Part shown: one piece after another, positions 1,062 to 43,063 of the stretch
Layout: every line of letters begins with the position of its first letter
Position numbering within the stretch: the first letter of the stretch is position 1
Assembly: GCA_001794055.1 (NCBI GenBank)
Contig: MGJB01000002.1
Coordinates: 1-46,933 of the forward strand
DNA: 46,933 nt
Source: Candidatus Yanofskybacteria bacterium RIFCSPHIGHO2_01_FULL_41_26
Lineage (GTDB): Bacteria; Patescibacteriota; Minisyncoccia; 2-02-FULL-40-12; GWA2-44-9
Direction: 5' to 3'
Position numbers and translations under genes: made by a program
Notes under the pieces: generated by a model
Told to the model about the DNA's origin: nothing
The model's input: only the letters and a program-made list of their open reading frames with translations
Database searches by the model: none

Positions 1062-1195
1062 TTATTTCAATAGTTCACACAACCTCTATGCATGCTGCGG
1101 AGCATACTTTTCTGAAATACTACTGATTTCATAAAAGCATGCTCCCTCCGCCGGTTGCTTTAGTGTTAGGCGGTGATTGACCATAGAGATTCAAA
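1062..1195. repeat. Structured dispersed repeat, family A, full copy
   Basis: CACAACCTCTATGCATG...CCCTCCGCCGGTTG...CCATAGAGATTCAAA aligns end to end with 21551-21686. Confidence 0.85.
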
Positions 1196-1267
1196 TTATT
1201 CTGAAATAAAATCAACAGGGCTGCGCTTAATAAAAACAAAAACTCGCCCGTAGGCGAGAAAATGGAA

Positions 1268-1477
1268 CTAAAACAGAATTGCCGAAAGAAGAAGAGTCAT
1301 TAGCCATGATTCATAATAGCTAATCTGTCGAAAGTTAAATAATTGTGGCAATAGTTCTGGCAGAAATATATTCCATACCAGCATCAGTAAAAGAGCTTTA
1401 ATCGGTGACACCATGAGTGTCACAAAGACTAACTTAAGGGTCTTTTCAAGAGATTTTGCCACCCTGTCTCTGAACAT
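1268..1477 (-). CDS. Small hydrophobic membrane protein (stand-alone unit)
   Basis: 69-aa ORF with AGGAGGAGG SD, own promoter TTGACA-17-TATATT (1538-1510) and terminator hairpin CTCGCC/GGCGAG at about 1243-1258. Confidence 0.75.
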   Translation of the reverse strand: MFRDRVAKSLEKTLKLVFVTLMVSPIKALLLMLVWNIFLPELLPQLFNFRQISYYESWLMTLLLSAILF

Positions 1478-1553
1478 CTAAACCTCCTCCTGCTTTCAAT
1501 CTATTTTATAATATACACGATAACTTATGCCGTGTCAATATCAAACGTATCAA

Positions 1554-2246
1554 CTATCTAGATTTTTTGGTCCTCCACTCTTCTATGCTTTTATGGTTCC
1601 CGGAAAGCAAAACTGGGGGTACTTTCAGCTTTTTTCCGCCCAACATAAACACTTTAGGACGAGTATAATGAGGGTGCTCTCTATAAGAGTTTACAGTTTT
1701 CAGTTTACTGTTTACAGAAACAGAGAAGCTTTCATTTTTTATAGATTCTTCTTTGGCAACCACTCCCGGAATCAATCTTAAAATGGTTTCAATTATTACC
1801 ATCGTAGGAACTTCTCCGCCAAATAAAACATAATTTCCAATGGATATTTCTTCATCGGCAACATGTTTGGCAACTCTTTCATCTACTCCCTCATAGCGCC
1901 CACAGATAAAAATTATCTGGTCATATTTGGCTAATCTTCGAACATCATTTTGGGTAAATGTTTCCCCCTTAGCTGATAGTAGGATTGTCCTCGTTTTACG
2001 TTTTACGCTTTTCGCTTTTCGCTTTAAAAATTGAACCGCTTTCCAGATGGGTTCAATTTTTAAAACCATCCCCGCTCCCCCACCATATGGCCGACCGTCT
2101 ACGGTCTTATGATTATCATCAGTCCATTTTCTTAAATTATGTAAATTTATTTTTATCAGTTTTTTCTTCTGCGCCCGCGCCAAAAGCGACTCGCTGACGA
2201 ATCCTTTAAATAAGTCCGGAAAAATTGTGATGATATCGAATTTCAT
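1554..2246 (-). CDS. trmD: tRNA (guanine37-N1)-methyltransferase
   Basis: MKFDIITIFP, VDGRPYGGGAGMV, ICGRYEGVDERV, SIGNYVLFGGE, HYTRP, VPPVLLSGNH. Confidence 0.97.
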   Translation of the reverse strand: MKFDIITIFPDLFKGFVSESLLARAQKKKLIKINLHNLRKWTDDNHKTVDGRPYGGGAGMVLKIEPIWKAVQFLKRKAKSVKRKTRTILLSAKGETFTQNDVRRLAKYDQIIFICGRYEGVDERVAKHVADEEISIGNYVLFGGEVPTMVIIETILRLIPGVVAKEESIKNESFSVSVNSKLKTVNSYREHPHYTRPKVFMLGGKKLKVPPVLLSGNHKSIEEWRTKKSR

Positions 2247-2359
2247 GAATTTAATATTATACCATAAAAATAGGAATTAAAAAGCAATCTCGCTCCGCCC
2301 CATCATTTTTCTGATCATAATCCTCATCTCGTCATTCGCTTCAAGATATTAGTTTTTTG

Positions 2360-2482
2360 TTTGATCTTCTCTTGCTAAATATCACCTGTCACCAAAACGG
2401 ACTTTGGCGGAGGGCGTGTGCCAATACAATGGGGGTCTTTGTGATACAAAGACCCCCATTGTATTTCTGAAATGTTGCAACC
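2360..2482. repeat. Family A repeat, diverged copy carrying a different perfect palindrome
   Basis: TTTGATC..TTGCTAA..TCACCTG..GGCGGAGGGCGTGTGC matches the reverse complement of family A. It is followed by the perfect inverted repeat AATACAATGGGGGTCTTTGT-GAT-ACAAAGACCCCCATTGTATT. Confidence 0.6.
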
Positions 2483-2511
2483 AAAAACCGCCGAAAAGGC
2501 GGTTTTTGGTT
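2479..2511 (-). terminator. Intrinsic terminator after khpA
   Basis: AACCAAAAACCGCC-loop-GGCGGTTTTTGGTT hairpin just past the stop codon. Confidence 0.75.
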
Positions 2512-2516
2512 GGGAT

Positions 2517-2837
2517 TTATAAATTACCCAATTCCCCCATAACGTCATCAACATTCTTTGTCTTTCCGACTGGTGCAACTCTGCCACCTTCCGGTTCCTC
2601 AATCTTGAGGTTAACTCTGGCGTTGTTTCTCATCCCAACAATTCTTGCCAAAGTTCTGACGGCCTTTGCGGTTGAACCGCTTCTTCCGATAAGCAATCCC
2701 ATATCTTCGGGAGCTACTTTGACTGTAAGCAAGACACCGAGTTCATCAACAGTCCTGTCTACCTTTACAGCATCGGGATTGTTGACGATTTCTTTTATAA
2801 TAAACGTAACAAATTCCTGATCTCGATCTTTAGCCAT
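2517..2837 (-). CDS. khpA: KH-domain RNA-binding protein (KhpA/UPF0109)
   Basis: VAPEDMGLLIGRSGSTAKAVRTL (GxxG KH loop); adjacent to trmD. Confidence 0.9.
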   Translation of the reverse strand: MAKDRDQEFVTFIIKEIVNNPDAVKVDRTVDELGVLLTVKVAPEDMGLLIGRSGSTAKAVRTLARIVGMRNNARVNLKIEEPEGGRVAPVGKTKNVDDVMGELGNL

Positions 2838-2955
2838 TTTTCATAAACTGGTCTTTCAACTATAGTTCAAATATATTCAACAATAGCCGATTTTCCAGTA
2901 AATTATTATCTTTCGACCAAGCCCATCAAACAGGCTTTATTATTAATATCTTACT

Positions 2956-5370
2956 CTAAATCACGATATTTGTCAATCGATTTTTGACGTAAATAAATTT
3001 CTTTATATCTTTTCCAACAAGATATTTTTTGATATTTTCGTTGCCCAAAACGATTCTTTTTACCTCTTCCTCCGATAATCCTTTTGTAATTTTCAGTACG
3101 TCTCGTTTTGTTCCATTTACCTGGATAACTAAATCAACTGGGCCATCTATTAGTAACGCTTCATCGTATTGAGGCCAGGCTTCAAGGTGAATAGATTTTT
3201 TATTTTTCAAAACGGTCTGCCAAAGCTCTTCGGTGATGTGTGGTGCAAAAGGCGCAAGAAGTTTGAGAAATGTTCCAAACTGTTTTTTTGTTAGCCACTT
3301 GTCTTCTAAAGCATTGAGGAGTTTCATCAATCCGCTCACTCCGGTATTGAATTTCAAATCCCTGATGTCGCCCCCTATTTCTTTCGTGGCTTTATTCAAT
3401 ATTTTATCAACCTCTTTGTCAGATACCTTGGGTTCTGTCGGTTTATCTATAAAATTCCAAATCCTGTTTAAAAATCTGAAGACTCCTTGAATTCCATCGG
3501 TATTCCACGGTCCGCCTTGGTCATATGGCCCCATAAACGACAGATACATTCTTATTGTATCAGCGCCGAATTTTTTAACCTCAATGTCCGGATCTACAAC
3601 ATTACCCCGCGATTTAGACATTTTCTGGTTATCAGGACCGAGAATTACTCCGTGATTTCTACGAGTCAAATACGGCTCGTCAAAATCCAAATAGCCCAAA
3701 TCGTGCAGGGCTTTAGTAATAAACCTTGAATATAAAAGATGCATGGTATTATGCTCCGCTCCACCGATATACAGCGGTACCGGCAGCCATGCCCGCAGTT
3801 TTTTCTTATCGGCAAACTCTTTTTGATTAATAGGGTCGGCATAACGCAGGAAATACCAGGATGAATCAACAAAAGTATCCATGGTATCGGTTTCTCTTTC
3901 GGCATCCTGTCCACATTTGGAACATTTAGCCATTGTCCAACCTTCTGCTTTTGCTAAAGGAGAACGGCCGTCGTCGGTGGGTTTAAAATCCTCAAGCACA
4001 GGAAGCTCAACTGGCAAATCTTTTTCCGGAACTGGCTGATAGCCGCACTTGTCGCAGTGAATCATCGGTATCGGTACGCCCCAGTATCTCTGGCGGGACA
4101 AAACCCAGTCATGCAATTTGTAATTCTTTTTAAAATCGGCCAAGCCCTTCTCCTTTAATTTATCTACAATTTTTTTCCGGGCTTCTTTAGAAAACACGCC
4201 TTCAAATTCTCCGGAATTAATTAAATCTCCCTCGTCTTCATATGCGCCGTCTTCCGTTCCTTCTGGTTGTGCCATTGCAACAACCTTTTCAATAGACAAA
4301 TCAAATTTCTTGGCAAAGTCCCAATCCCTCTCATCATGTGCCGGAACAGCCATCACTGCTCCTGTTCCATACCAACCGATAACATAATCGGCAACCCAGA
4401 CAGGAATCTTTTCGTTATTAATCGGATTAACAACATACCCGCCCGTATTCACACCTGTTTTGGATTTATCAATATATAAACGCTCAATCTCTGTTTTATT
4501 TTTTACCTCTTCCAGATACTTATTTATGGTATCCAAGTTTTCATCTTTGGTAAGTTTTGTTACCATCGGATGCTCGGGAGCAAGAACAAGATATGTCGCA
4601 CCAAATAAAGTATCGGCGCGGGTAGTGAACACTTCTATATATTCCTGGCCCCCTTTTGAAAATTTAGAATTGAAAATTGGAAATTTCAAAAGCGCCCCCT
4701 CGGAACGGCCTATCCAGTTTCTTTGGGCAACCCTGACTGTTTCCGGATAATCAACTTTATCCAAGTCGTCAAGCAACCTATCGGCATAATCCGTGATCTT
4801 AAACATCCATTGGAAGAGTTCTTTTTGTTCAACTTCTGTTCCGCATCGGTCACAATGACCGTCTTTGACCTGTTCATTGGCCAACACTGTTTTATCTTTC
4901 GGACACCAGTTTACGAAAGTCTTTTCTCTGTATGCCAATCCTTTTTCGTACATTTTTAAAAAAATCCACTGCGTCCACTTATAGTATGCGGGATCAATAG
5001 TTGAAACTGCCCGGGACCAATCAAACATAGCCCCTGTGTTCTTTAATTGCTTGGTCATTTGCTTGATATTATCTTCCGTCCAGTCGCGAGGATTAATGTT
5101 CCTCTGAATGGCCGCGTTCTCCGCCGGCAGGCCGAAAGCATCAAATCCGGTCGGATACAAAACATTATGTCCGGTCATTTTCAAATAGCGGGCCAAAATA
5201 TCGGGCACCGAAAATGCCAGCCAGTGGCCGATATGGAGATTGCCGGAAGGATAGGCAAACTCCGTAAGCAACATATAATTGTTTTTTCCTTCTTTTGTAT
5301 GATAAAACTTCTTGGCTTCCCAATATCTCTGCCATTTTTTTTCAATTTTTTCGGGATTGTATTTAGGCAT
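2956..5370 (-). CDS. leuS: Leucine--tRNA ligase
   Basis: YPSGNLHIGH, GFDAFGLPAEN, editing domain FTTRADTLFG and GTGAVMAVPAHD, KMSKS. Confidence 0.98.
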   Translation of the reverse strand: MPKYNPEKIEKKWQRYWEAKKFYHTKEGKNNYMLLTEFAYPSGNLHIGHWLAFSVPDILARYLKMTGHNVLYPTGFDAFGLPAENAAIQRNINPRDWTEDNIKQMTKQLKNTGAMFDWSRAVSTIDPAYYKWTQWIFLKMYEKGLAYREKTFVNWCPKDKTVLANEQVKDGHCDRCGTEVEQKELFQWMFKITDYADRLLDDLDKVDYPETVRVAQRNWIGRSEGALLKFPIFNSKFSKGGQEYIEVFTTRADTLFGATYLVLAPEHPMVTKLTKDENLDTINKYLEEVKNKTEIERLYIDKSKTGVNTGGYVVNPINNEKIPVWVADYVIGWYGTGAVMAVPAHDERDWDFAKKFDLSIEKVVAMAQPEGTEDGAYEDEGDLINSGEFEGVFSKEARKKIVDKLKEKGLADFKKNYKLHDWVLSRQRYWGVPIPMIHCDKCGYQPVPEKDLPVELPVLEDFKPTDDGRSPLAKAEGWTMAKCSKCGQDAERETDTMDTFVDSSWYFLRYADPINQKEFADKKKLRAWLPVPLYIGGAEHNTMHLLYSRFITKALHDLGYLDFDEPYLTRRNHGVILGPDNQKMSKSRGNVVDPDIEVKKFGADTIRMYLSFMGPYDQGGPWNTDGIQGVFRFLNRIWNFIDKPTEPKVSDKEVDKILNKATKEIGGDIRDLKFNTGVSGLMKLLNALEDKWLTKKQFGTFLKLLAPFAPHITEELWQTVLKNKKSIHLEAWPQYDEALLIDGPVDLVIQVNGTKRDVLKITKGLSEEEVKRIVLGNENIKKYLVGKDIKKFIYVKNRLTNIVI

Positions 5371-6151
5371 TCAACTTAAACAAATTCTGACAGTTTTTTG
5401 TCGTTTGTTCAATTACTTTTTCGTAGGACTCGTTTTTCAGTTCGGCAACCTTTTTTGCCACTTCAATTACATATGCCGGTTCGTTTCTTTTGCCTCTATG
5501 TGGTTCGGGGGTTAAATATGGAGCATCAGTTTCAAGAAGCATTCTTTCTAAAGGAACATCACGAACTATCTCGTCATACTGACGAGCGAATGTCACAATT
5601 CCATTAAATCCAACATACAGTCCAAGATCAAGAAACTGTTTAGCCTCTTCCAAGGAACCGGTATATGAATGAATGACTCCTCCGTTAGCGACATAGTTGC
5701 CATTTTTCAATATCTCGATCATGTCCGGATAAGCTCGCCCACTGCTGCCGGCCTTAGAGTCGCGACAATGCAAAATCAAGGACACTTTCATTTCTTTTGA
5801 TAATTCTAATTGTTGGATAAATCTTTTTTTCTGAAATTTCTGGTCTTCGGATTTTTTGGTCCGGTAATAATCCAAACCTATTTCTCCGAATGCAACCACC
5901 TTGTTCTGCTGCAATAATTCTCGATATTTTTCTGGTTCAAACTTTTCATTTAAATTATCATTCGGATGCAATCCAACTGAAGCCCACATGCCTTCATGTT
6001 TTTGAGTCAATTCAATCGCTTGTTTTGAGGTTTCCAAATCCGTCCCTACACAAATCACAAAAACATCCTCTTCCAAGGCTCGGTTAATGACTTCCTCGCG
6101 GTCTTTGTCATATTGAGCCATCTGCGGATGGCAATGAGAATCAAAAATCAT
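5363..6151 (-). CDS. tatD: TatD family DNase/hydrolase
   Basis: DSHCH, GLHP, GEIGLDY, LHCR, IHSY, LETDAPYL, RGKRNEP. Confidence 0.95.
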   Translation of the reverse strand: MIFDSHCHPQMAQYDKDREEVINRALEEDVFVICVGTDLETSKQAIELTQKHEGMWASVGLHPNDNLNEKFEPEKYRELLQQNKVVAFGEIGLDYYRTKKSEDQKFQKKRFIQQLELSKEMKVSLILHCRDSKAGSSGRAYPDMIEILKNGNYVANGGVIHSYTGSLEEAKQFLDLGLYVGFNGIVTFARQYDEIVRDVPLERMLLETDAPYLTPEPHRGKRNEPAYVIEVAKKVAELKNESYEKVIEQTTKNCQNLFKLNA

Positions 6152-7641
6152 TTTAATCTTGGAAATAGTCCTTCTTCCTTCTTCACTTTAAACTTGTAAT
6201 TTTCGGGAATTTCTTTGTTTGACAAGTCGTCTCCGAATATTTTTGCAATTTTATCGGCAGTTTCTGGCATGAATGGCTGAAGCAACCAAGCAATGTCGTG
6301 CATACTATCAATTAAATTAGTCATGGTTTCTAAAAAATTGCTTGGATTTTCTTTTGTTTCTACCCACGGTTTTCTATCATCCACATATTGATTTGCTTTG
6401 GAAATTAACTTCCAAATTTCTCCCAACGCATCATGCAATCTGAATTCTTCTATTGAATCTTGATATTTTGCTTGAGTTATTAATTCATCGTTTGTGATTT
6501 TGTCTTTATCATAGATTAACTCACCATCAAGACTATTCTCAATCAATGTTGCCACTCTCTGAACCAAATTCCCCAATCCATTTGCCAAATCACCATTATA
6601 TCTTTCCCCCAATTTTTTATATGAAAAGTCACCATCGTCTCCTGATGGAATTTCCCGCAACAGGAAATATCTGACCACTTCAGCACCGTATTTTTCTATA
6701 ACATTAAAGGGGTCTATGGTATTACCCAAAGATTTAGATATCTTCTCGCCATCAATATTCACATATCCATGCACAAAAACCTTTCTTGGTAACACAAGAC
6801 CGGCTGACGTAAGCATTGCCGGCCAATATATTGTATGGAAGCGATTAACACCTTTGCCAAACAGATGAGTTACATATCCATTCTGCCAATAATCCTGAAA
6901 TTTTTGCGTATCATCTGCATACCCAAGAGCGTTGACATAACAGGTTAGAGCATCAAACCAAACATATTGAATCTGTTCATCGTCCCCTGGTACTGGGATC
7001 CCCCAATTTTTTGCACGAGTTTTGCTTCTTGATATACTAAAATCTTTCAATCCTTGTTTAATAAACTGTAGGGTTTCGTTTCTTTTGGCTTCGGGAATAA
7101 TGGTCAATTCACCAGATTCAATTAATCTTAAAAGATCTTTTTCGTATTTACTTAATCTGAAAAAATAATTTTCTTCCTCCACAATTTCCGGTTTAATACC
7201 ATGTTCGGGACACTTTTCGTCAACTAAATCTTTCTCGGTTTTAAATTCCTCACAACCGATACAATACAAACCTTTGTAACTTTTCTTGTAAATATCTCCT
7301 CTGCCCATACAGGCCTGCCAAAGTTTTTGAGCTCCTCTTATGTGTCGCTCTTCTGTTGTCCGAATAAAATCATCATTGGAGAGATTTATTACTTTAGTAA
7401 GATCAATAAACTTTTGTGCATGTTTATCTATAAATTCCCTAACAGGAACATTGGTCCTTTCAGCAGCTTGAACATTTTTTAAGGCATTTTCATCAGTTCC
7501 GGTCATGAAAAAAACAGCATCACCCATTAAGCGTTGATATCGAGCAATTACATCGGCTTGAATCAATTCCATAGTAAAGCCAATGTGTGGGTCAGCATTT
7601 ACATACGGGATTGCTGTTGAAATATAAAATTTATTTTTCAT
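6148..7641 (-). CDS. metG: Methionine--tRNA ligase, short form without the C-terminal tRNA-binding domain
   Basis: YISTAIPYVNADPHIG, TGTDE, DFIRTT, YVWFDAL, KISKSLGN. Confidence 0.96.
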   Translation of the reverse strand: MKNKFYISTAIPYVNADPHIGFTMELIQADVIARYQRLMGDAVFFMTGTDENALKNVQAAERTNVPVREFIDKHAQKFIDLTKVINLSNDDFIRTTEERHIRGAQKLWQACMGRGDIYKKSYKGLYCIGCEEFKTEKDLVDEKCPEHGIKPEIVEEENYFFRLSKYEKDLLRLIESGELTIIPEAKRNETLQFIKQGLKDFSISRSKTRAKNWGIPVPGDDEQIQYVWFDALTCYVNALGYADDTQKFQDYWQNGYVTHLFGKGVNRFHTIYWPAMLTSAGLVLPRKVFVHGYVNIDGEKISKSLGNTIDPFNVIEKYGAEVVRYFLLREIPSGDDGDFSYKKLGERYNGDLANGLGNLVQRVATLIENSLDGELIYDKDKITNDELITQAKYQDSIEEFRLHDALGEIWKLISKANQYVDDRKPWVETKENPSNFLETMTNLIDSMHDIAWLLQPFMPETADKIAKIFGDDLSNKEIPENYKFKVKKEEGLFPRLK

Positions 7642-8309
7642 TTTTTGTTTATTACCACCACAAATTCTCCTAAAAGATTTTTATCGGTTAGGCGGGGTTT
7701 TATTTCTGCCAATGTCCCCCGATAAATTGTCTCGAACTGTTTTGTTAACTCTCTGGCAATTACCATTTGTTTATCACCAATCTTAGAAAATTTTTCCAAA
7801 TTTTCCAATGCTTTTAAAATTCTATGCTTGGATTCATAAAACACAATAATGCTGTCAATTTCTGAAATTTTTTTGAAAAATGTTTGACGGCCTTTTTTGT
7901 GAGGTGGGAAACCGAGAAATACGAAAGAGTCCTTAGGAAATCCGCTGATACTTAATGCCGCAATCGCCGCATTCGGCCCGGGTATCGGCACAATTTTCAA
8001 ATTAGGAACTGCTCTCAATGCTTCACTGACCAAATAATTTCCAGGGTCATTTATTCCGGGAGTTCCGGCGTCGGTGACAAGAGCTAAGTTTTTGCCTCTT
8101 TTTAGTAGTTCAATAATGTGGTCTATCTTTTTAAATCCACTATATTGATGGTAACTCAAAATCTCTTTTTTTATATTATATCTGTCGAGCAAAACTTTGG
8201 TAACCCTTGTGTCTTCAGCAAGAACAAGATCGGCATTGCTTAAAACATTAATTGCTCTCAAAGTAATGTCTTCGAGATTTCCAATTGGAGTTGCAACAAT
8301 GGAAAGCAT
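7638..8309 (-). CDS. rsmI: 16S rRNA C1402 2'-O-methyltransferase
   Basis: VATPIGNLEDITLRA, AEDTR, DAGTPGINDPG, ARELTKQFE. Start moved to ATG 8309, which removes the overlap with the upstream gene. Confidence 0.95.
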   Translation of the reverse strand: MLSIVATPIGNLEDITLRAINVLSNADLVLAEDTRVTKVLLDRYNIKKEILSYHQYSGFKKIDHIIELLKRGKNLALVTDAGTPGINDPGNYLVSEALRAVPNLKIVPIPGPNAAIAALSISGFPKDSFVFLGFPPHKKGRQTFFKKISEIDSIIVFYESKHRILKALENLEKFSKIGDKQMVIARELTKQFETIYRGTLAEIKPRLTDKNLLGEFVVVINKK

Positions 8310-8310
8310 A

Positions 8311-9354: not shown

Positions 9355-9357
9355 ATT

Positions 9358-10638: not shown

Positions 10639-10643
10639 AATTT

Positions 10644-10717
10644 TGGTGCCGGCGGATGGAATCGGACCATCGTCTAAGGCTTATGAGTCCTTCGTTCTAC
10701 CATTGAACTACGCCGGC
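10644..10717 (-). tRNA. tRNA with CAT anticodon (elongator Met, or Ile2)
   Basis: GCCGGCG acceptor stem, loop CTCATAA, T arm GATGG-TCCGATT-CCATC, encoded CCA. Confidence 0.9.
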
Positions 10718-10789
10718 GGAGCAAAATATTTATTCTTACTATACATTAAAAACACATCTTTAACAATAAAAACGCGGCTACACGCCGCA

Positions 10790-12606: not shown

Positions 12607-12901
12607 CGCGGGGTAGAGCAGCGGCAGCTCGTCAGGCTCATAAGAAATTGTGACCTATCATAGAAATGTGGTATGGAAAAACTTTCGAAATTGCCGGAAA
12701 CCCGATTGTCTTGCAAAAGACGTAGGGCAATCAGCAGCGAAATCTTTTGATAAACAAAAGAGACGTTCAGAGACTATAATGGAAGCATCCCTCCCCAGTT
12801 TTCCCAAACTGGGGAGGGATGATGGGATAGTCCGACACTGTCAGTAATGGCAGCAAACAGCCAGAACCTGAAGGTCGTGGGTTCGAATCCCACCCCCGCA
12901 A
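12607..12901 (+). tRNA. Initiator tRNA-fMet(CAT), split: exons 12607-12641 and 12865-12901
   Basis: Joined exons give CGCGGGGTAGAGCAGCGGCAGCTCGTCAGGCTCAT/AACCTGAAGGTCGTGGGTTCGAATCCCACCCCCGCAA. The C1:A72 mismatch is typical of initiators. Confidence 0.95.
12642..12864 (+). ncRNA. Group I self-splicing intron (223 nt) in the tRNA-fMet anticodon loop
   Basis: Follows a U and ends in G. Guide GTGA pairs with exon TCAT. Core elements: P AAATTGCCGGAAAC, Q AATCAGCAGC, R GTTCAGAGACTA, S GATAGTCC. Confidence 0.93.
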
Positions 12902-15194: not shown

Positions 15195-15196
15195 TT

Positions 15197-19354: not shown

Positions 19355-19578
19355 CGCTCCGCCCCCTCCCCATTTTCGACCTATTGCTTGCGCCTTCGGT
19401 CTCCTACAGAGATTCGAAAGGCGGCCAAAGCACGCTTCTCCGAGATCGGACAAATGCTCAAATTAGATCTCAATTTGCTTAATAAATCTTAGCATCCGTT
19501 TCTCCTTCGACAAGCTCAGGATTTTCTGGCTAAGATTTATTATCTAAGAAAATTATCAACTAATTTGAGCATTGCGTT
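19355..19578. repeat. Structured dispersed repeat, family B, copy 1
   Basis: Long hairpin core 19449-19578 aligns with 24058-24184. Starts right after the pnp stop codon. Confidence 0.85.
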
Positions 19579-21550: not shown

Positions 21551-21686
21551 TAATTCTGAATAGGTGACACAACCTCTATGCATGACTGCGGGGTGCACTT
21601 TTTTAAAATATTACTAATTTTAAAAAAGCACACACCCTCCGCCGGTTGCATAGTTGTCAGATGACAACTGGCCATAGAGGTTCAAA
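21551..21686. repeat. Family A repeat, full copy
   Basis: AACCTCTATG/CATAGAGGTT closing stem; CCCTCCGCCGGTTG at 21635-21648. Confidence 0.85.
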
Positions 21687-21893
21687 CTTTCACTGATTTT
21701 GGCTCAAAGGGCCGGTTTTATTTTGCAAAAGTTGTCTCAGGTAGAGTTTAGATTCTAGTTGAGGTCAGACACCTCAAGAGCTTACCACTTTCTCGCTCGG
21801 TCGCTCACAAGGCCGGTTTGACTTGACAAAAAGATTGAAAGTATTATAGTTATGTAACTTTCGTGCCAAGAGCAAGAGGGTGGGAGGTAGGAA

Positions 21894-22103
21894 ATGAGAG
21901 TCGAGTTCGTGCCGATTGTTGGATTCCTCGTAAGTTTTCATCGCGCGATAAAAATGCAGTCACTACAAAGAAACAGCGTCATTTCAGTATGGGATGGCAG
22001 TGATTATGTTTTTGGTCCGTTTACAATTTCTGCAATCATTTCTTACGGTTTTCTTCAGTTAATTATTGTGATTCTTGCTTTGTGTAAATCATTTTTAGCA
22101 TAA
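21894..22103 (+). CDS. Small membrane protein (stand-alone unit)
   Basis: TTGACA..TATAGT promoter, GGGAGG SD, hydrophobic C-terminus, GCCC/GGGC+T terminator. Confidence 0.65.
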   Translation: MRVEFVPIVGFLVSFHRAIKMQSLQRNSVISVWDGSDYVFGPFTISAIISYGFLQLIIVILALCKSFLA

Positions 22104-22183
22104 CAATCAAGTTTATTTGCCCCATCTCGCTTTGGGGCTTTTTGTTTTTAGATAAGCCGTTGATCTTACTTTATCAATGGAAG

Positions 22184-22300
22184 TTTGAATCTTTGTTGCC
22201 AATCGTCACCTGTTTACCCAAACAACCGGCGGAGGGAGAGGCTTTTTACAAAATTAGTAAATTTTAAAAGCGAAACCCTAATCCATTAGAGGGACTTATG
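22184..22300. repeat. Family A repeat, inverted copy
   Basis: TTTGAATCTT..CAACCGGCGGAGGG..GCTTTTTACAAAATTAGTAAATTTTAAAAG matches the reverse complement of 21590-21686. Confidence 0.8.
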
Positions 22301-22376
22301 GAGTTCGGCAGAACGAGTACGAGGCAAAATTTTAGCAAGAGTTTATGCCGTGCCCGAGAATGGGTTAGGGTTGAGC
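22269..22376. repeat. Family B termini (inverted) around an unrelated core
   Basis: Reverse complement GCTCAACCCTAACCCATT...AATGGATTAGGGTTTCGCT matches the ends of 24000-24228. Confidence 0.6.
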
Positions 22377-23999: not shown

Positions 24000-24228
24000 G
24001 CTCAACCCCACCCCCCCATTTACTGGCCTGTTGGTTACGTCCTCCGGATCTTCGTCAGACAAATACTAAAATTAACCTTCAATTTGCTTAATAAATTTCA
24101 GCAACCGTTCCTCCGCCTGCTGGCGGATTTTCCGGCTAAAATTTATTGTATAAGCAAATTATCGGTTAATTTTAGTATTGTGTTGCCTGGCGAAACCAAA
24201 CGGCCTCAAATGGGGATGGGGTTTCGCT
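24000..24228. repeat. Family B repeat, copy 2 (complete long hairpin)
   Basis: Nested inverted repeats from AACCCCA..CCATTT/AAATGG..TGGGGTT up to the apical TCCGCCTGCTGGCGGA. Confidence 0.85.
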
Positions 24229-24334: not shown

Positions 24335-24505
24335 ATGGATTTCTGGCAAGTTCACGGAATTTGGTTCCTTATCTTCATCATGATGTTCCCACGGTTGACG
24401 ATGTTGTTCGCCGTGACGGTGCCGTTCGGCTGGCTCGCTTGGCTGGGCTGGGTATTCACCCCCTCCCTCCGTACGCGTAGAGGTTGCGGGGTGCTATTGA
24501 AATAA
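24335..24505 (+). pseudogene. Small Trp/Phe-rich membrane protein, probably 3'-truncated
   Basis: TTGCAA-17-TATAAT and AGGAGG SD precede MDFWQVHGIWFLIFIMMFPRLTMLF...WLGWVFTPSL. The frame then reads into a family A end fragment. Confidence 0.6.
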
Positions 24506-33499: not shown

Positions 33500-33503
33500 T
33501 TAA

Positions 33504-33523
33504 AAGCGCCCTTAAAGGCGCTT
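33504..33523. terminator. Likely bidirectional terminator between holA and spoVR
   Basis: AAGCGCC-CTTAAA-GGCGCTT between convergent stop codons. Confidence 0.65.
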
Positions 33524-36337: not shown

Positions 36338-36456
36338 AAAATCACCTCTGTAAATTTTTAAATTTCTGGAGAAAGAATAACAACAAACTCCGCTCTTGAA
36401 AAGGGGCAAATAAAAAACTCCCGATTAAGGGAGTACTGTCCTTTTCAAGGGCGGGG

Positions 36457-38541
36457 TTACTCATTTAAGAATTCATCGGCTTTTTCGATGATCTCTTTGG
36501 CGCAAGTTTTACAGAACCCTCCGGGACCGGTGAGTTCCGAGAAAAGATCACTAGCCCGTTTCTTTGATTCTTCGTCTTTGGGCTTATGAATAGCCAATAC
36601 TGTTTTTAACATGTCTTTCGAGTCAGAAAGAAGTTTTTTGTCGACAGCCCGAGATAATGGAGGATATGAATCATAGGCCAAACTTCCTGCTTCCAGTATT
36701 TCTCCTCTAAAATTATCAGCTTCAGATTCGGAAATTGGTATAAACTCCTCAATCTCTCGTAGAAATTTTACATTTGGTGTCTTGGGTCTTCCCGTCAACG
36801 TATCACGGACAACATCAGTTCGGCCTCTGACAAATTTTCTTTTCTGTTCTCTGTAAAATCTTGCCTCTCTTACATAATCGTCGAACATTTGGCGAGCCAA
36901 ATCATCGTGAGATTTGAGAAACGCCTTCTCAACAGCGCTAACTGTAAATTCTTTATATTCAGCAACAACAGTGCCACCCTCGCTTGAGGAAAGTAGTTCC
37001 TTGTAGCGGCTTACTTCTTCCGGAGTGACACCCATTCGATGTTCAAAAATTTCTCTTAGAGCCGTCAAGGTCTTAAGGGGGGTTAAACATCCGTTGTCAG
37101 TATCTGATTCTTTGGCAAGAGCGCTGTTTAAAGCGGCCAGAACGGTTCTCGAACTGACCCCGAACATACCTTCTATTTTGGCAATGTCCGGTGATGTGCG
37201 GCCCTCTTCAATAAGCTCCCTTATATCGATTGGTTTTTTATCTTTATCCCTAAGTTCTGTTAAGGCTCGGTCGCCATTATAGACCTTAGCTTTTGTTAAT
37301 GAATCAATTCCCATCTGCGAAGGCGTAAGTCGTGTCAAAATGGCAAATAACGCCGCAAGTTCTAACGCTCCCGGAGCGATGTGATGTCCTTTTAATCGGA
37401 CAAAATCACTTTCTCTTTCGATAAGCTTTTTATAGAGTCTTACCTCGTCTCTTATTCGCAGAGGATAGTGAAAAGGTACTACGATAAATCGGTCATGGAG
37501 CCCTTCATATTTTTTATTTGTAGCAAACTCCTTAAAAGCAGTTAGGTTGGTGTGGCCGATTATTACGGTATCGACAGAAAGATGAGGGAAATAAGAGCCT
37601 TCAATTTTTAATTGTTTTTCTTCGGCTACACTGAAAAAAACTCTCAAAACCTTAGGATCGCTTGAAGTAACCTCTCGTCCTTCAACGAAACCTCTTTCTC
37701 CAGCCGGAATTTCCCCGCCTATCTCAAAAGCTCTGGGATGATTGTGACCGTATGCAGGATTTGAAGTTATGCCGATGTTTTCCCGGCCGCTTAACGCTGT
37801 AGTATCGGAAGTTATTTCGTTTGATGGTTCAAATGAACCAATGCCGCGTCTACCCTGAATCGAGAAAGTAAAAGTCTCTACCGGAACTTCATGCCAACGA
37901 ACAGTTCCGTCCGGATCACTGTACTTTGTTTCTAAAAGATCTCGGCAAACAGGGCAAAGGTCGCCTTCTATTTGGACTCCTATATGTAGATGTTTGGGAT
38001 CTGGATCCGCTTTGCATTCTGTACAATGTTCTTTTTTTGTTGCTGCTTGGTCCCTCATATAACGGGGAAGAAGATGAAGCGGTTCCTCGTGTTTTGGACA
38101 TCCTTTGATAAAAAATACCGGACGCTTGTTATAGTTTTCCAACGCTTTGCCCAGAATTCTTACCCAAGTTGATTTTCCTGCTCCAGGAGGACCGACAAGG
38201 ATCAGAAGGTACTTTCCTGTGGAGCCTCGAGTTGCTCCGACTTTAATATGTTCAACCGCTTCAGATATGGGTTTATCTACCCCGTAAAGTTCTTTACGGA
38301 AAAGATTATATCCAGTAGAAACCCCCATCCACTGTTCTTCTTCGGGAAGTTGAACTACTTCGGCGTTTTGAATTATTTCCCACAATCTCGAAGCAGATAG
38401 TTGAGCAATGGCCGGATCTTCCGCCACTAAGGCTAAATATTCACGAAATGTTATTTCTCTATGGAGTTTCTTTTTCGCTCTTTTTCGCTCGGCATCTTCT
38501 TTAATAATGCTGTTAAAGCCGTTCTTTTTTTCTTCTGACAT
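36457..38541 (-). CDS. prkA: PrkA/YeaG family AAA+ protein
   Basis: TFREYL, LVGPPGAGKST, CPKHEEPLHL, GDLCPVC, IIGHTN, DRFIVVPFHY.L, EGMFGVSSR. Start at ATG 38541 with AAGGAG SD. Confidence 0.92.
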   Translation of the reverse strand: MSEEKKNGFNSIIKEDAERKRAKKKLHREITFREYLALVAEDPAIAQLSASRLWEIIQNAEVVQLPEEEQWMGVSTGYNLFRKELYGVDKPISEAVEHIKVGATRGSTGKYLLILVGPPGAGKSTWVRILGKALENYNKRPVFFIKGCPKHEEPLHLLPRYMRDQAATKKEHCTECKADPDPKHLHIGVQIEGDLCPVCRDLLETKYSDPDGTVRWHEVPVETFTFSIQGRRGIGSFEPSNEITSDTTALSGRENIGITSNPAYGHNHPRAFEIGGEIPAGERGFVEGREVTSSDPKVLRVFFSVAEEKQLKIEGSYFPHLSVDTVIIGHTNLTAFKEFATNKKYEGLHDRFIVVPFHYPLRIRDEVRLYKKLIERESDFVRLKGHHIAPGALELAALFAILTRLTPSQMGIDSLTKAKVYNGDRALTELRDKDKKPIDIRELIEEGRTSPDIAKIEGMFGVSSRTVLAALNSALAKESDTDNGCLTPLKTLTALREIFEHRMGVTPEEVSRYKELLSSSEGGTVVAEYKEFTVSAVEKAFLKSHDDLARQMFDDYVREARFYREQKRKFVRGRTDVVRDTLTGRPKTPNVKFLREIEEFIPISESEADNFRGEILEAGSLAYDSYPPLSRAVDKKLLSDSKDMLKTVLAIHKPKDEESKKRASDLFSELTGPGGFCKTCAKEIIEKADEFLNE

Positions 38542-38585
38542 CGATGTCTCCTTGGCGAGTAGTTTTAAAAGTTCTAGATTTACCC

Positions 38586-38651
38586 ATATTAGTATAAGGG
38601 GGCTTAAAGTCAATCCCACCATGTTGATTTTTCTTAAATAATATGTATACT
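38586..38651. promoter_or_regulatory. Back-to-back promoters for prkA and lon
   Basis: Minus strand TTGACT-16-TAATAT; plus strand TTGATT-16-TATACT. Confidence 0.55.
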
Positions 38652-38689
38652 ATTGACAAGTTCTTTACCAATTAGGGAAACAAAGAAAA

Positions 38690-41122
38690 GTGCATCCAAA
38701 ACATCAAATCGTGCTTCCTGTACAGCACGTCTTGATAAATCTTGGTCCGAGCATAATGGTAATGCCAGGGACTTGGTCTTATATTCGTTTAGACGATCAT
38801 GAATCTTCCAGTAAGATTTTGACAGCAGTTAAGGCCGGGCAAGCCCCTTATGTTTTTGCTGTAATGTCTGATCCTCAGATAAAAGATCCGCCGGACAGAT
38901 TTTATAAAGTTGGCGTAGTTGCTGAAACACGACCATACAATGATGATCGGGCCATTGTTTTGGGGGGTCTTTTAAGGGCCGAGATTACTAAATTCATAAG
39001 GGTTGGAGAAAAGGGCGGAGGTCTTTGGATGGTTAGCCTCAAGAAGATAGAAGACGAGAATCACGATGATTATTTTGTAAAATCTAATCAACATGTTTTG
39101 GCTGATATGATAAAAATTAGAGATCTTCTGAGGTCTTTTGTGATCAGAGCGGAAGGATCTTATCTTTTTGACAAGAGGCTTCTGGATCTTCTGTTGGATA
39201 ATTTTGAAAATACTGACTGGGGAAATAAAGATGCGGTTGATAATTTTATCTGGTCAACACTGCATGCGGTTCCGGATTTACTCCAAGAAGATAAACAGCC
39301 TATTCTTGAAAGCATGAGTTTGCCGGAAAGAATTGAGCTTTGCATTAAAACTATTAAGAAAAGATTAAAGCTTCTAGAAATTCAAAAAGAGAATATGTCA
39401 AAAGATGGCAAGCTTATTAGAAGAGCAAGAAAAACCGAAGTAGATCCCCGAGGTGATGCAAATAAAAACGACGAAGATGATTTTGTCAAAGGCATTCATG
39501 TCGACATAAAAAAGAGATGGGAACAATTCAAATTAATTAGGGATCACATGAACGAAGATGCTGGCGATGTGATAATGGAGGATCTTGAGAAGCTGAAGTC
39601 CTTAGGAAGTCCGCAAGGGAATAATTACGAATGGCCCAAGTATATGCGGCGCGTAGACTTTATTCTTGGTCTTCCCTGGAAAGAAGAAACGGTTCAAGAA
39701 GGCAATATCTCTAAAGTGGCACAGATTCTCGACGAAGATCACTTTGGCCTTGTTTGTGAAAAGGATTCAATTTGCGACCAAGTCGCTCCCAAATTGCTTA
39801 ACCCCGGTAGTAGGGGATCCATTATTTGCCTTGTCGGTCCTCCCGGAACAGGGAAGACTTCTCTTGCCAAATCAATAGCTAGGGCATTGAACAGAAAATA
39901 TATCAGGATGTCTTTAGGTGGTGTTAGAGATGAAGCCCAGATCAGGGGCCACGGCATTACTTATGTTGGTGCTGAACCCGGAGAGATACTGAAGCTGATG
40001 AAGCGATGCGGAGTTAAAAATCCATTGTTTGTTATTGACGAGATTGATAAATTGGGACAAATGTCCACCAGCGGAGACCCATCCGCAGCGATGCTTGAAG
40101 TTTTGGATCCCGAACAGAACGGTACATTCAAGGACCATTTTGTAGCTTGTGGATTCGACCTTTCAAGGGTTATGTTTATCGCTACGGCAAATCAGGAACA
40201 TACGATCCATCCCGCTCTTAGAGACAGGATGGATGTTACTCGTTTGCCAGGATATTTAGAAGTTGAGAAGGTGGAAATTGCCAAGAGGCACCTAATCCCT
40301 CGTTTGATGAAAGACTTAGGTCTTATTCAAAATAACGTCGAAGTTGCATGGGAAGAGGGCCTGATCTCCAAAATCATCAGGAGCTATACAAATGAAGCCG
40401 GAGTCAGAAACATTGAAAGAGCTCTTGCAAAAATTTTAAAAAAGATTTGTCGAGCATATCTCAAATCAAAAAACGAGGAAGAGCCGGTTACTAAATTTAA
40501 TGTGACTGAACAAAAAGTCCATGAGTATCTCGGACCACCCAAGTTTACCAAGGACAGAGTCAGGCCTACGAAAGTGGGAGAGGCAATAGGCCTTGCCTGG
40601 ACTCCTGTCGGCGGAGACATTCTTTACGTTCAAGTAGAAACCTACCCCAGACTACAGGGCAAGAAAGTTTTTGCTCGAACCGGAATGCAGGGCAAAGTTA
40701 TGGAAGAATCTGATGAAGTTGCCTTAACTCTAGTAAGAAATAGGCACCCAGAGTTGTCTGAAAAGTTATCGGAGCTTGCTATCCATTTGCACATACCAAA
40801 CGGTGCTGTTCCTAAAGATGGACCTTCTGCTGGGATAACCATAGTAAGTGCTTTAGAATCTGAAATAACGAATAAGCCTATAAAATTTAATTTAGCAATG
40901 ACGGGGGAGATAGATTTAAAAGGCAGAGTTTTAGCGGTTGGCGGGATTAGAGAAAAGATAGTGGCCGCTGAAGGAGCGGGCATAGAATCAATTATTATGC
41001 CAAAGGATAATGAGAGAAATCTTCACGACGTGCCTGAGGCCGTAAAGGACAAACTAATATTTCATTTTGTGGAGTCAATAGATGAAGTTTTGGAAAATGC
41101 ATTTCCACGGGACCCGGCTTAA
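38690..41122 (+). CDS. lon: Lon (La) ATP-dependent protease with a divergent N-domain
   Basis: LDEDHFGL, GPPGTGKTS, LGGVRDEAQIRGH, IDEIDK, EAGVR, PKDGPSAG (Ser), GGIREK (Lys). Confidence 0.96.
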   Translation: MHPKHQIVLPVQHVLINLGPSIMVMPGTWSYIRLDDHESSSKILTAVKAGQAPYVFAVMSDPQIKDPPDRFYKVGVVAETRPYNDDRAIVLGGLLRAEITKFIRVGEKGGGLWMVSLKKIEDENHDDYFVKSNQHVLADMIKIRDLLRSFVIRAEGSYLFDKRLLDLLLDNFENTDWGNKDAVDNFIWSTLHAVPDLLQEDKQPILESMSLPERIELCIKTIKKRLKLLEIQKENMSKDGKLIRRARKTEVDPRGDANKNDEDDFVKGIHVDIKKRWEQFKLIRDHMNEDAGDVIMEDLEKLKSLGSPQGNNYEWPKYMRRVDFILGLPWKEETVQEGNISKVAQILDEDHFGLVCEKDSICDQVAPKLLNPGSRGSIICLVGPPGTGKTSLAKSIARALNRKYIRMSLGGVRDEAQIRGHGITYVGAEPGEILKLMKRCGVKNPLFVIDEIDKLGQMSTSGDPSAAMLEVLDPEQNGTFKDHFVACGFDLSRVMFIATANQEHTIHPALRDRMDVTRLPGYLEVEKVEIAKRHLIPRLMKDLGLIQNNVEVAWEEGLISKIIRSYTNEAGVRNIERALAKILKKICRAYLKSKNEEEPVTKFNVTEQKVHEYLGPPKFTKDRVRPTKVGEAIGLAWTPVGGDILYVQVETYPRLQGKKVFARTGMQGKVMEESDEVALTLVRNRHPELSEKLSELAIHLHIPNGAVPKDGPSAGITIVSALESEITNKPIKFNLAMTGEIDLKGRVLAVGGIREKIVAAEGAGIESIIMPKDNERNLHDVPEAVKDKLIFHFVESIDEVLENAFPRDPA

Positions 41123-41174
41123 AAAGCCGGTTTTTTGTAAAAAAGTGATTTTTGGCGTATACTTTTTAAAGATT

Positions 41175-42734
41175 ATGTTCAACTACCTCCATGTCGGCCG
41201 GGCTACTGATTTAATCGACGACAAAGACCGGCACTTATTCCGCCTTCTGGAAGTAATGCCTGGTTTTTTGGCTTGGCTTACGTTGTTTTTGGTGGCCTTG
41301 TTGTCTTTTTTGGTCCCGTTTTGGATGGCGATATTTATAATTGCCTTCGATGTTTATTGGCTCATTAAAACTGTGTATTTGTCTTTGCACCTGCGAGTTT
41401 CGTACAACAAACTGAAAAAGAATCTGACCTTAAACTGGATTGAAAAATTAAACAGACTATCGACTATCGACTATCGACTATCGACTATCAAATCGTGGCA
41501 GGATATTTACCACTTTGTTTTTCTGCCTTTGTATAAAGAAGATTATTCTGTCGTTGCTTCCACGATAGAAGGTCTTTTAAAAACAAATTATCCAAAATCA
41601 AAGATGGTGGTAGTTATTTGTTGGGAAGAAAGGGGGGGCAAAGAGACTGAGTCGGTTGTCCGTGAAGTTGAAAAAAATTATAAAAATGTTTTTTTAGATT
41701 TTGTATCAGTAATGCATCCGGCCAACCTTCCTGATGAGATTCCTGGCAAGGGTTCAAATACTGCTTATGCCGCAAAGATGGTCAGGGATTCTATTGTTGA
41801 TGTCCGTCGGATTCCATATGATCATATTCTTGTTTCTAATCTTGATATTGATACTGTCGTTTTTCCCGAATATTTTGGAATTTTGATGCACACTTTTCTT
41901 ACTACGCCTAACCCGCTACGTTCTTCTTATCAGCCGATTCCTTTGTATGTTAATAACATTTGGGAAGCTCCGTCATTTGCAAGAGTAGTTGCTTTTGCGG
42001 CGACATTCTGGCATACCGTGAAACAGGAGAAAGCCGAAACGGCCACGACATTTTCATCCCACTCAATGCCATGGCAGGCATTGGTAGATGTCGGATTTTG
42101 GCAAAAAAATATGGTTTCAGAGGATTCTCGGATATTTTGGCAGTGTTTTTTAAGGTATGACGGCGATTACAAGGTTGTGCCGTTATTTTATCCGGTATCA
42201 ATGGATGCCAATGTTGCTTCAACAAATTTTCAAACACTGAAGAATGTTTACAAACAACAAAGGCGCTGGGCATATGGGGCCGAGAACATACCTTATTTCA
42301 TGTTTGGTTTTATGAGAAATAAAGCCATTTCTTTCTCTAAAAAATTGTATTATGGGTTCATGGTCATTGAAGGAAATCACTCCTGGGCAACGAATGCCCT
42401 GCTTATTTTTGTTTTAGGCTGGCTGCCGGTCTTGCTGGGCGGTCAGGAATTTAACAGAACAGTTCTTTCTTTTAATTTGCCTTATTTGACTAGAATAATC
42501 ATGACTCTTTCGATGCTCGGCTTGGTTTCTTCGGCTATTTTATCTATTATTCTTCTTCCGCCTCGGCCTCTTAAATACGGCAAATTTAAATATTTCTGGA
42601 TGCTGGTTCAGTGGGTATTATTTCCCGCAACGACAATATTTCTCGGTTCCATACCGGCATTGGAAGCTCAAACTCGCCTGATGCTCGGCAAGTATATGGG
42701 GTTTTGGGTAACCCCGAAGATTAGGGCAAGGTAA
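41175..42734 (+). CDS. Multi-TM family 2 glycosyltransferase
   Basis: PLYKE, GKGSN, LDID (DxD), SED, QQRRW; TM helices at both ends. Start taken at ATG 41175. Confidence 0.88.
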   Translation: MFNYLHVGRATDLIDDKDRHLFRLLEVMPGFLAWLTLFLVALLSFLVPFWMAIFIIAFDVYWLIKTVYLSLHLRVSYNKLKKNLTLNWIEKLNRLSTIDYRLSTIKSWQDIYHFVFLPLYKEDYSVVASTIEGLLKTNYPKSKMVVVICWEERGGKETESVVREVEKNYKNVFLDFVSVMHPANLPDEIPGKGSNTAYAAKMVRDSIVDVRRIPYDHILVSNLDIDTVVFPEYFGILMHTFLTTPNPLRSSYQPIPLYVNNIWEAPSFARVVAFAATFWHTVKQEKAETATTFSSHSMPWQALVDVGFWQKNMVSEDSRIFWQCFLRYDGDYKVVPLFYPVSMDANVASTNFQTLKNVYKQQRRWAYGAENIPYFMFGFMRNKAISFSKKLYYGFMVIEGNHSWATNALLIFVLGWLPVLLGGQEFNRTVLSFNLPYLTRIIMTLSMLGLVSSAILSIILLPPRPLKYGKFKYFWMLVQWVLFPATTIFLGSIPALEAQTRLMLGKYMGFWVTPKIRAR

Positions 42735-42800
42735 CTTGACGTCAGTCTTGCTATTGTTTATGATACGGCTTGGTTATTCTGATTATTTAAAGGTGGCAAG

Positions 42801-42950
42801 ATGACTAACAAAAAGTGGGAATACAAGATGGTAACGATTGCCCTGTTAGATCAGACCAGAACAGAAACAATCCTGAATGAATTAGGCAAAGCTGGATGGG
42901 AGCTGGTTGTTGTAAATTATGCCGCAGCCTATTTGAAGATGGAAAAATAA
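42801..42950 (+). CDS. DUF4177-like small protein (stand-alone unit)
   Basis: MTNKKWEYK...LNELGKAGWELV, 49 aa (below the ORF-track cutoff). TTGACG-17-TATGAT promoter at 42736-42764. Confidence 0.8.
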   Translation: MTNKKWEYKMVTIALLDQTRTETILNELGKAGWELVVVNYAAAYLKMEK

Positions 42951-42994
42951 ATCAGGAATTAATTCGGCTAAGTGCCGGATTTTTGTTAAGCCGG

Positions 42995-43063
42995 TTTGAA
43001 TCTCTATTGCCAACTGCCATCCCCATCCATATTCACAGGGGTTGTGGGGTGTTATTGAAATAA
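42995..43063. repeat. Family A repeat, internally deleted copy
   Basis: Both ends retained: TTTGAATCTCTATTGCCAACTGCC and GGTTGTGGGGTGTTATTGAAATAA. Confidence 0.7.

Follow-up and report, generated by a model that had tools for sequence, protein, structure and literature searches.

Family A is a dispersed miniature repeat with six related loci on contig MGJB01000002.1 of Candidatus (Ca.) Yanofskybacteria bacterium RIFCSPHIGHO2_01_FULL_41_26; the whole 46.9-kb contig (46,933 nucleotides) is the stretch of DNA analysed and is called the window throughout. The repeat is real, and apparently an undescribed family of miniature element; we consider it likely to be a non-autonomous DNA repeat resembling miniature inverted-repeat transposable elements (MITEs), specific to one genus of Patescibacteria, ultra-small groundwater bacteria whose named records are Ca. 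Yanofskybacteria. A mobile element fits because the family is restricted to a genus, present in 2–37 copies, bounded by inverted ends and noncoding, because copies are found cut down or nested, and because orthologous loci are empty in some genomes and filled in others. Three readings had been offered in a preliminary description of the window sequence: a non-autonomous mobile element tied to the gain and loss of accessory genes, which fits; a structured single-stranded DNA site analogous to attC or to repetitive extragenic palindromic (REP) sequences, which is retained as unlikely; and a multi-copy non-coding RNA, the weakest of the three. The unusual traits of Family A are a co-varying internal hairpin to which other repeats are drawn, and an arrangement in head-out pairs around accessory genes.

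Recurrence and distribution

All six loci claimed in the preliminary description are present about where it had placed them, and the conserved blocks that it gave for the ends and the linker are correct. Recurrence of Family A is far above chance: in the genome of the window (G000; an assembly of ~800 kb (0.8 Mb) in 18 contigs, 40% G+C), an nhmmer search with the 3' module returns 13 matches at an expectation value (E) of 7e-6 or lower, spread over seven of the 18 contigs, and the linker word CCCTCCGCC has nine exact occurrences, four of these in window copies. The strong matches in this genome are all intergenic. A resemblance between the CCCTCCGCC linker and the 3' end of a tRNA-Ser gene is taken as chance.

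When the search was extended to related genomes, as had been proposed, a sequence model of the 3' half matched 15 (G000), 2, 17, 34, 37 and 12 times in six genomes of the genus, a spread in copy number of up to 18-fold; among 35 other genomes of the family or order, six match, weakly, the best being G021 from another genus, with five matches at 7e-6 or weaker. The diverged G021 copies (L018, L029 and L037) have their parts in the same order, around a stem of another sequence. Since every genome here is a metagenome assembly and repeats break contigs, the copy counts are lower bounds. An exact two-block pattern searched in 185,579 one-per-species genomes was found in 46 stretches, 45 of them in six Patescibacteria assemblies with the record labels Ca. 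Yanofskybacteria, Patescibacteria group, Ca. Paceibacterota or, probably loosely, Ca. Saccharibacteria. The remaining stretch belongs to an alphaproteobacterial record; outside the two blocks of the pattern it has nothing in common with Family A and has the appearance of ordinary DNA, and it is taken as chance. Viral contigs hold 0 matches to the exact pattern, and metagenome contigs at least 142 stretches. In the DNA contigs of four groundwater and soil runs, sequencing depth at the repeats is ~60–90x that of their flanks, an excess that reflects repeat abundance in these communities and explains the contig breaks and depth spikes met in metagenome assemblies of these bacteria. The hairpins fall into distinct subfamilies with several near-identical members apiece in a single genome, a pattern indicative of bursts of copying.

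The absence of a known family, supposed from the start, was borne out for Rfam 15, which has no match over any copy at the gathering threshold (window), at E ≤ 10 (four window copies) or at E ≤ 0.01 (six further loci); a literature search at listing level found no account of MITE or REP families in Patescibacteria.

Anatomy and structure

The anatomy was read from 31 full copies of one relative and 42 distinct full copies overall. Family A is about 143–175 bp long and has no coding capacity, there being no open reading frame (ORF) of 60 aa or more inside the two full window copies, c1 and c2. The unit runs in the order T(C/T)T(G/C)AATAGYT-CACACAACCTCYATGCAT, hairpin, CCTCCGCCGGTTG, ~22 weakly conserved bases and TTGGCAATAGARGTTCAAAC, with a tail TnTTCTGA(AATAA) added in some copies; the linker CCTCCGCCGGTTG is invariant, and conservation among aligned copies is limited to the stretch from ~10 nt before CACACAAC to just after TCAAAC. 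GTTRRRY-like words were noticed by eye, in some copies only. The ends form imperfect inverted repeats of ~28 nt, T(C/T)T(G/C)AATAGYTCACACAACCTCTATGC against the reverse complement of …GCAATAGAGGTTCAAACTnTTCTGA, and over the inner 10 positions of these terminal repeats complementarity is seen in 65% of 400 cells.

The preliminary description had assembled the conserved ends, a long hairpin and a second hairpin into a three-way junction, which the aligned copies do not bear out. Pairing in its outer 'stem' (AACCTCTATG/CATAGAGGTT) reaches only 65%, and a single cell is compensatory; because both ends are imperfect inverted copies of each other, this 'stem' is the terminal inverted repeat and not a maintained helix. 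The second helix, CCGGTTG/CAAYTGG, is 93% 'paired', yet G-U stands at its two central pairs in 38 of 40 and 35 of 40 cells, as neutral transitions opposite a G/T-rich strand would give, and no structure is predicted by RNAalifold in the 3' module.

The long central hairpin, said to vary in sequence while pairing is largely kept, is confirmed. Spanning ~50 nt, it folds in 40/40 copies with a mean of 18.2 pairs, −17.4 kcal/mol and 0.3 G-U pairs per hairpin, and its stem sequences vary by subfamily (GGAGGGAGACRCC, CTGCGGGGTGCMC, GGAGCATAC, GTAGAACCA and others). Cognate arms pair at −18.5 ± 4.5 kcal/mol (n = 37) against −11.5 ± 5.1 for non-cognate arms (n = 1332), the cognate mean being reached by 126 of the 1332 non-cognate combinations, and five of 11 pairs of the apical stem are changed on both sides; by these comparisons the arms co-vary between subfamilies. 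The part of the claim that did not stand concerns several of the supposedly variable hairpins, that of window copy c4 among them, which are nested copies of other repeats. Over 40 full copies, RNAalifold recovers nothing but an invariant 5-bp CAACC/GGTTG pairing, since MAFFT leaves the stems of different subfamilies out of register.

Conservation of the hairpin could also be explained by a structured RNA, whether a multi-copy small RNA or a cis element of 3' untranslated regions, for example one that guides processing of transcripts or stabilises them at the edges of accessory genes; the hairpin, and perhaps the CCGGTTG/CAAYTGG helix, would then act in the transcript. The second helix, if G-U is allowed, would fit an RNA of the + sense of c1 and c2, and the position of many copies is suggestive: nine of the 15 G000 copies lie in sense just after a gene, seven of these with the 5' end −9 to 18 nt from the stop codon, and in all sources together a frame of at least 100 codons reads toward the element and stops within 60 nt of it at 43 of 77 5' ends. 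In seven, a TAG or TAA belonging to the ATAG motif serves as the stop codon; such proximity need not mean target choice, because the spacers are so short. The other six G000 copies are antisense to both neighbours, however, and members of a pair lie on opposite strands; many copies are cut down or carry hairpin inserts of 40–120 nt, and a single genus spans 2 to 37 copies per genome. Together with the lack of an Rfam match, the empty RNAalifold consensus of the 3' module, the invariant 5-bp pairing found at most for the whole element and the neutral-transition pattern of the second helix, these observations make a structured RNA most unlikely. Among public sequencing runs, no RNA run is listed with the region.

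Nesting of other repeats in the hairpin tip

Several miniature-repeat families have multiplied in this genus, nesting in one another, and the Family A hairpin receives other mini-repeats at its tip: in several copies the supposedly variable hairpin is such an insertion rather than a variant. Many copies are cut down (c5, c6, C14) or interrupted. The repeat called type B has a structured core of ~80–100 nt (CCCACGAAGACCGCATAAAA…GAACGTTCTTCTTTGGG) with no Rfam match and at least 15 G000 copies of 70 nt or more; it is found solo and inside the hairpin tip of three Family A copies, examples being contig C6:13065-13160 and contig C1:64515-64610. Type C, the perfect palindrome of c4, is present at eight G000 loci, sits in the tips of three G000 Family A copies, and flanks both sides of a 207-aa gene on contig C11 that carries an HUH motif and resembles REP-associated tyrosine transposases (RAYTs). 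Family E, a mini-repeat of ~100 nt with inverted ends AACCCTAATCCATT/AATGGGTTAGGGTT, is distinct from Family A and has many copies of 85–93% identity in genomes of the genus; it interrupts window copy c3 at 22274-22372 and is also found on G000 contig C6 at ~13.7 kb.

Further repeats were met in the same surroundings. A family of ~130 nt with an internal 29-nt inverted repeat lies at 19446-19573 and 24055-24179 of the window; G005 also has it in its htrA-smpB island, and it coincides with depth spikes of metagenome contigs. Another palindrome, TCAACGGCTCACATGTGAGCCGTTGA, is found repeatedly at the inner side of TTCAAAC ends of Family A, immediately next to them, and elsewhere (C14:6640-6665 and C17:91205-91236 in G000; L224:1750-1790), and may be a terminator or another REP-like unit. 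In G032, from a different family in the order, the very edge of a contig (L019, bases 1-230) holds a Family A copy whose tip contains a type C palindrome; this could represent transfer between families or a binning error.

Convergent pairs and accessory genes

Neighbouring copies of Family A tend to face one another. Of the 34 distinct pairs of neighbours separated by at most 4 kb, 26 converge (TTCAAAC inward), three diverge and five are in tandem; the binomial p of this bias is 4e-10 against an expected 25%, with the qualification that related genomes are not independent samples. The cargo of convergent pairs measures 35–3128 nt, mostly 285–3128, with one pair just 35 nt apart, and includes no transposase family. 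It consists of accessory DNA, restriction-modification and toxin-antitoxin genes included: small or orphan ORFs with their own promoter-like sites and terminators, as well as an MjaI-type endonuclease with an N4/N6 methylase, a TaqI-like enzyme, and a gp30.3/NADAR protein. That the TTCAAA end faces a small gene, first remarked for the window copies, holds there and generally; 71 of 104 first ORFs on the TTCAAAC side have no Pfam family, and the remainder are a mix of defence-type and housekeeping genes, including MjaI endonuclease, N4/N6 methylase, TaqI-like, MazF, Phd, SIR2 and gp30.3/NADAR.

The comparison of orthologous loci suggested in the preliminary description did reveal sites that hold an island in some relatives and are empty in others; the target duplications sought with it were not detected. 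The htrA-smpB spacer measures 8–10 nt in G001 and G002; in G000, G003 and G005 it is occupied by an island of 0.6–0.9 kb with one Family A copy at its edge (5' end outward) and a different small gene each. The content of the locus that holds window copies c2 and c3 differs in all six genomes, with inverted pairs around unrelated genes in G000, G003 and G004, and the island at C6:13k is absent from G001 and G004. This contrast between empty and filled holds at the level of islands; no clean insertion of a single copy beside an otherwise identical empty site was found. One DNA-run contig joins 21538 to 22420, with just 30 letters on its shorter side, and is too weak to count as an empty site.

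By the mechanism proposed here, copies would be spread by a trans-acting enzyme that recognises the ends, the hairpin or both, and convergent copies (5' ends out, TTCAAAC in) would mark sites at which small, promoter-bearing accessory genes are gained or replaced, a turnover that the copies probably promote. They might do so by mobilising the enclosed segment, as pairs of the miniature elements called TIMEs do, or by serving as ~150 bp of portable homology through which incoming DNA could recombine.

Pairs of TIMEs are reported to mobilise the DNA between them, with composite transposition and 5–6-bp duplications shown by experiment (PMC4133298). Family A pairs share the shape of a composite transposon, in which two miniature elements flank functional genes without a transposase (26 distinct convergent pairs enclose such cargo), and differ in that no cargo unit is found at more than one genomic place, that the flanking copies are usually of different subfamilies, and that these are always head-out. 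Integron mobilisation units and mobile insertion cassettes are also comparable. In this genus the miniature repeats mark the few places at which species differ in gene content; phage-type genes, orphan genes and components of restriction-modification and toxin-antitoxin systems are found there. Candidate Phyla Radiation bacteria, whose genomes of ~0.8 Mb have next to no spacer DNA, are usually described as poor in mobile elements; if it is true that the pairs mobilise or recruit genes, they would be a main route of accessory-gene flux, defence genes included, in organisms that cannot be cultured.

Candidate enzymes

An IS481-like insertion sequence (IS) of ~1.1 kb with an rve domain is present in G000 (C14:23.8–24.4 kb and C11:36.2–36.66 kb, both at contig ends, and C18:39285), where it breaks contigs, and in G002 (contigs C29 and C35). 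Its ends, CGTAATGGTTCAATAGCTTGG… and …CGAAGCTATTGACCGCTATTCG, contain TTCAATAGCT, a 10/10 match to the 5' end of Family A, followed by C(G/A)CAAC as in Family A; the likeness comes to ~15/18 bases, and its alignment score is reached by 2 to 230 of 5000 shuffles, according to the copy. On this resemblance the IS481-like element is a candidate parent only, and its DDE transposase a possible, if doubtful, source of the moving activity. A RAYT-type HUH enzyme that acts on the hairpin as single-stranded DNA is somewhat less likely again, and about an even chance is given to an enzyme that is absent from these assemblies or now lost.

A transposase, HUH or recombinase gene as neighbour, which the preliminary description had named as a sign to look for, did not emerge. 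RAYT-like Y1 genes (PF01797) number 2, 8, 2, 3 and 1 in the five searched genomes (16 in total), and in 16/16 the two flanks share a word of 12–30 nt, the palindrome being, by eye, particular to each gene. The two G000 genes, at C11:1054-1790 and C6:127900-128760, encode 207 and 244 aa with the motif NHYHLL and are flanked by palindromes of their own (ATACAATGGGGGTCTTTGTAT… and CCTGTGGATAACCGACTT…AAGTCGGTTATCCACAGG). The Family A hairpin flanks 0/16 of the RAYT-like genes; the sole one near any copy lies ~0.6 kb away on the TTCAAAC side, at L090 (G002 contig C27; 200-384, 970-1638), where the far side is hidden by a run of N. Tyrosine recombinases amount to one Xer-like gene per genome, which in G000 does not adjoin a copy, and large serine recombinases to 1–4 per genome, none of them beside a Family A copy in G000.

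This census bears on the possibility that Family A is a hairpin-dependent single-stranded DNA element, in which a RAYT-type HUH enzyme or another recombinase would read the folded hairpin and pairs of sites would delimit exchangeable cassettes. REP and REPIN sequences are structured palindromic intergenic repeats served by RAYT (Y1 HUH) transposases, the REP unit being a short imperfect palindrome of 20–40 nt that often occurs in inverted doublets. Family A resembles them in its intergenic palindromic structure, in the lack of target duplications and, in part, in its inverted doublets, which are mostly 285–3128 nt apart and come closest to a REPIN at the locus where two convergent copies lie 35 nt apart. 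The hairpin is the best-kept structural feature of the family, with co-varying arms almost free of wobble; the genus has active-looking REP machinery, with RAYT-like genes in 5/5 searched genomes, and one RAYT-flanking palindrome, that of type C, sits in the tip of three G000 copies. Family A is, on the other hand, 4–6x longer than a REP unit, has non-palindromic conserved flanks and possesses inverted ends, which HUH elements do not, and its copy number does not track RAYT gene number; no RAYT-like gene has the Family A hairpin at its flanks.

The likeness to attC sites lies in conserved ends around a variable middle that keeps its structure, adjoining small accessory genes. Sites of the attC type stand in direct-orientation arrays behind intI and attI, with cassettes mostly devoid of promoters, whereas Family A copies are dispersed in inverted pairs, their cargo has its own promoter-like sites, and the genomes have no integron integrase and a single Xer-like gene each. 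A hairpin-dependent element of either kind is accordingly judged unlikely. A bolder version, in which Family A copies are the recombination sites of an undescribed gene-cassette system of ultra-small bacteria, is quite unlikely: the head-out hairpin sites would let a RAYT-type HUH, Xer-like or large serine recombinase insert, swap or remove promoter-bearing accessory and defence genes, with exchange taking place in the 10-nt spacers of a streamlined genome, as a functional analogue of integrons and pdif modules with another site architecture.

Weighing the mobile-element reading

Several results weigh against a MITE-like, mobile Family A. Target-site duplications are undetected over 73 copies, the longest shared flank word being 5.38 nt for cognate against 5.28 nt for non-cognate flanks, in a test that would miss duplications of 2–3 bp or eroded ones. 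No autonomous element with Family A ends was found, and no transposase is present among the first ORFs beside 104 copies. The similarity of the IS481-like ends is short and its significance depends on the copy used; rve is found in just two of five searched genomes, which do not include the two with most copies, and family scans detected DDE_3 in 0/6, DDE_Tnp_1 in 1/6 and the TnpB domain in 0/5 genomes. The same spacers are filled in several species, which fits inheritance with local turnover as well as repeated insertion. No cargo is common to distinct loci, 17/17 cargo matches among 38 pairs representing one locus resampled, which leaves movement of whole cassettes conjectural; the two members of a pair are usually of different hairpin subfamilies, which argues against a single transposon with two identical ends. 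Because of these last two observations, the pairs may act as portable homology and hot-spot markers rather than as the ends of one transposon.

Two related searches were equally negative. The 4.6–10-kb intervals between copies in G003, searched for an autonomous partner, hold housekeeping-like genes (by ORF lengths and N-termini), and G000 5'-end fragments that have no 3' module adjoin ordinary genes, one lying upstream of a tryptophanyl-tRNA synthetase-like ORF (by eye). The word TTCTGAA(A)TA was considered as a duplicated target and rejected, since the end words are unassociated, both being present in two of 40 copies against ~2.25 expected.

Taken to their extreme, these results would make Family A a passive relic, a few old insertions at syntenic recombination hot spots with no present mobility and no part in cargo turnover. 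The sites occupied in at least two species (trmD-KH, the recG 3' end and C14/G003) agree with this, as do the missing duplications, the lack of cargo shared between loci and the lack of a partner enzyme. An 18-fold range of copy number among congeners does not, nor do the near-identical subfamily members within one genome, a sign of bursts of copying; the marked preference of neighbouring copies for one orientation, moreover, calls for a cause. A passive relic is therefore held to be highly unlikely, and the MITE-like reading is retained.

Relation to described miniature elements

Size (under ~500 bp), the absence of coding capacity, inverted ends, dispersed copies of variable number, and islands that are empty or filled place Family A with MITEs; target duplications were not detected. 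Comparable bacterial MITEs are the Correia/NEMIS elements of Neisseria, ERIC and RUP. Like MITEAba12, Family A is small, noncoding, multi-copy, intergenic and bounded by inverted ends, with a copy number that varies between relatives; both can supply stop codons, and possibly outward promoters, and have ends resembling, in Family A over a short match of copy-dependent significance, those of a co-resident IS (PMC6382973). In MITEAba12, 40% of copies show clear target duplications of 9 bp, and the parent IS is near-identical (PMC6382973). Family A, in contrast, has no detected duplications, a sole candidate parent that shares ~15/18 end bases, a separate internal hairpin that co-varies, and a strong convergent-pair arrangement.

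Modular organisation with folding potential, in which conserved end modules surround a variable middle, is a likeness between Family A and BOX. The BOX elements of pneumococci are modular and vary by repetition of boxB; Family A has no sequence relation to them, and its middle varies through co-varying stems and through nested foreign repeats.

Copies in the window

The full copies c1 (1062-1209, + strand) and c2 (21554-21696, + strand), identified by sequence comparison within the window and by nhmmer, are 74–92% alike over parts. In c1, the 5' inverted end (TTATTTCAATAGTTCACACAACCTCTATGCA) occupies 1062-1092, the central hairpin 1099-1145, the linker CCCTCCGCCGGTTG 1144-1157 and the 3' inverted end (…CATAGAGATTCAAATTATTCTGAAATAA) 1181-1209, all on the + strand; opposite its TTCAAAC end lies a 69-aa orphan ORF without a Pfam family (1268-1477, − strand). 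Copy c2, placed after the terminator of the upstream gene, is the left member of a convergent pair whose right member is c3 (22173-22271, − strand), which consists of the 3' module, the linker and most of the hairpin, its 5' part being replaced by the unrelated Family E. The cargo between them (21823-22103, + strand) comprises a promoter-like TTGACA-17-TATAGT (21823-21851, + strand) and a 69-aa membrane-like orphan ORF, also without a Pfam family (21894-22103, + strand).

Copy c4 (2342-2482, − strand), located between trmD and the gene for a KH protein, retains the 3' module and linker, and its hairpin is replaced by the perfect palindrome at 2423-2465, a REP-like element of its own. Both ends are kept in c5 (42992-43064, − strand), which has an internal deletion, begins 5 nt past the recG stop codon (recG 43069-45261, − strand) and faces with its TTCAAAC end a 49-aa ORF at 42801-42950; the orthologous locus L225 holds two full copies. 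The shortest, c6 (24464-24505, − strand), amounts to the 5' end and the first hairpin bases only, and its reverse complement encodes the last codons and stop (…RGCGVLLK*) of a 56-aa ORF at 24335-24505. The short ORF at 42896-43063 has the same terminal RGCGVLLK*, again from the reverse complement of a Family A 5' end, from which it follows that Family A can supply C-termini and stop codons.

Other features of the window

A match to 16S ribosomal RNA (rRNA) at 301-828 (− strand) covers only model positions 9-546, and beyond it an open frame of at least 158 aa (1-474, − strand) runs off the start of the window; the 16S rRNA gene may be interrupted by an insertion, as rRNA genes of this radiation are frequently reported to be. 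At 12630-12854 (+ strand) the window matches the group I intron family Rfam RF00028 with 81 bits.

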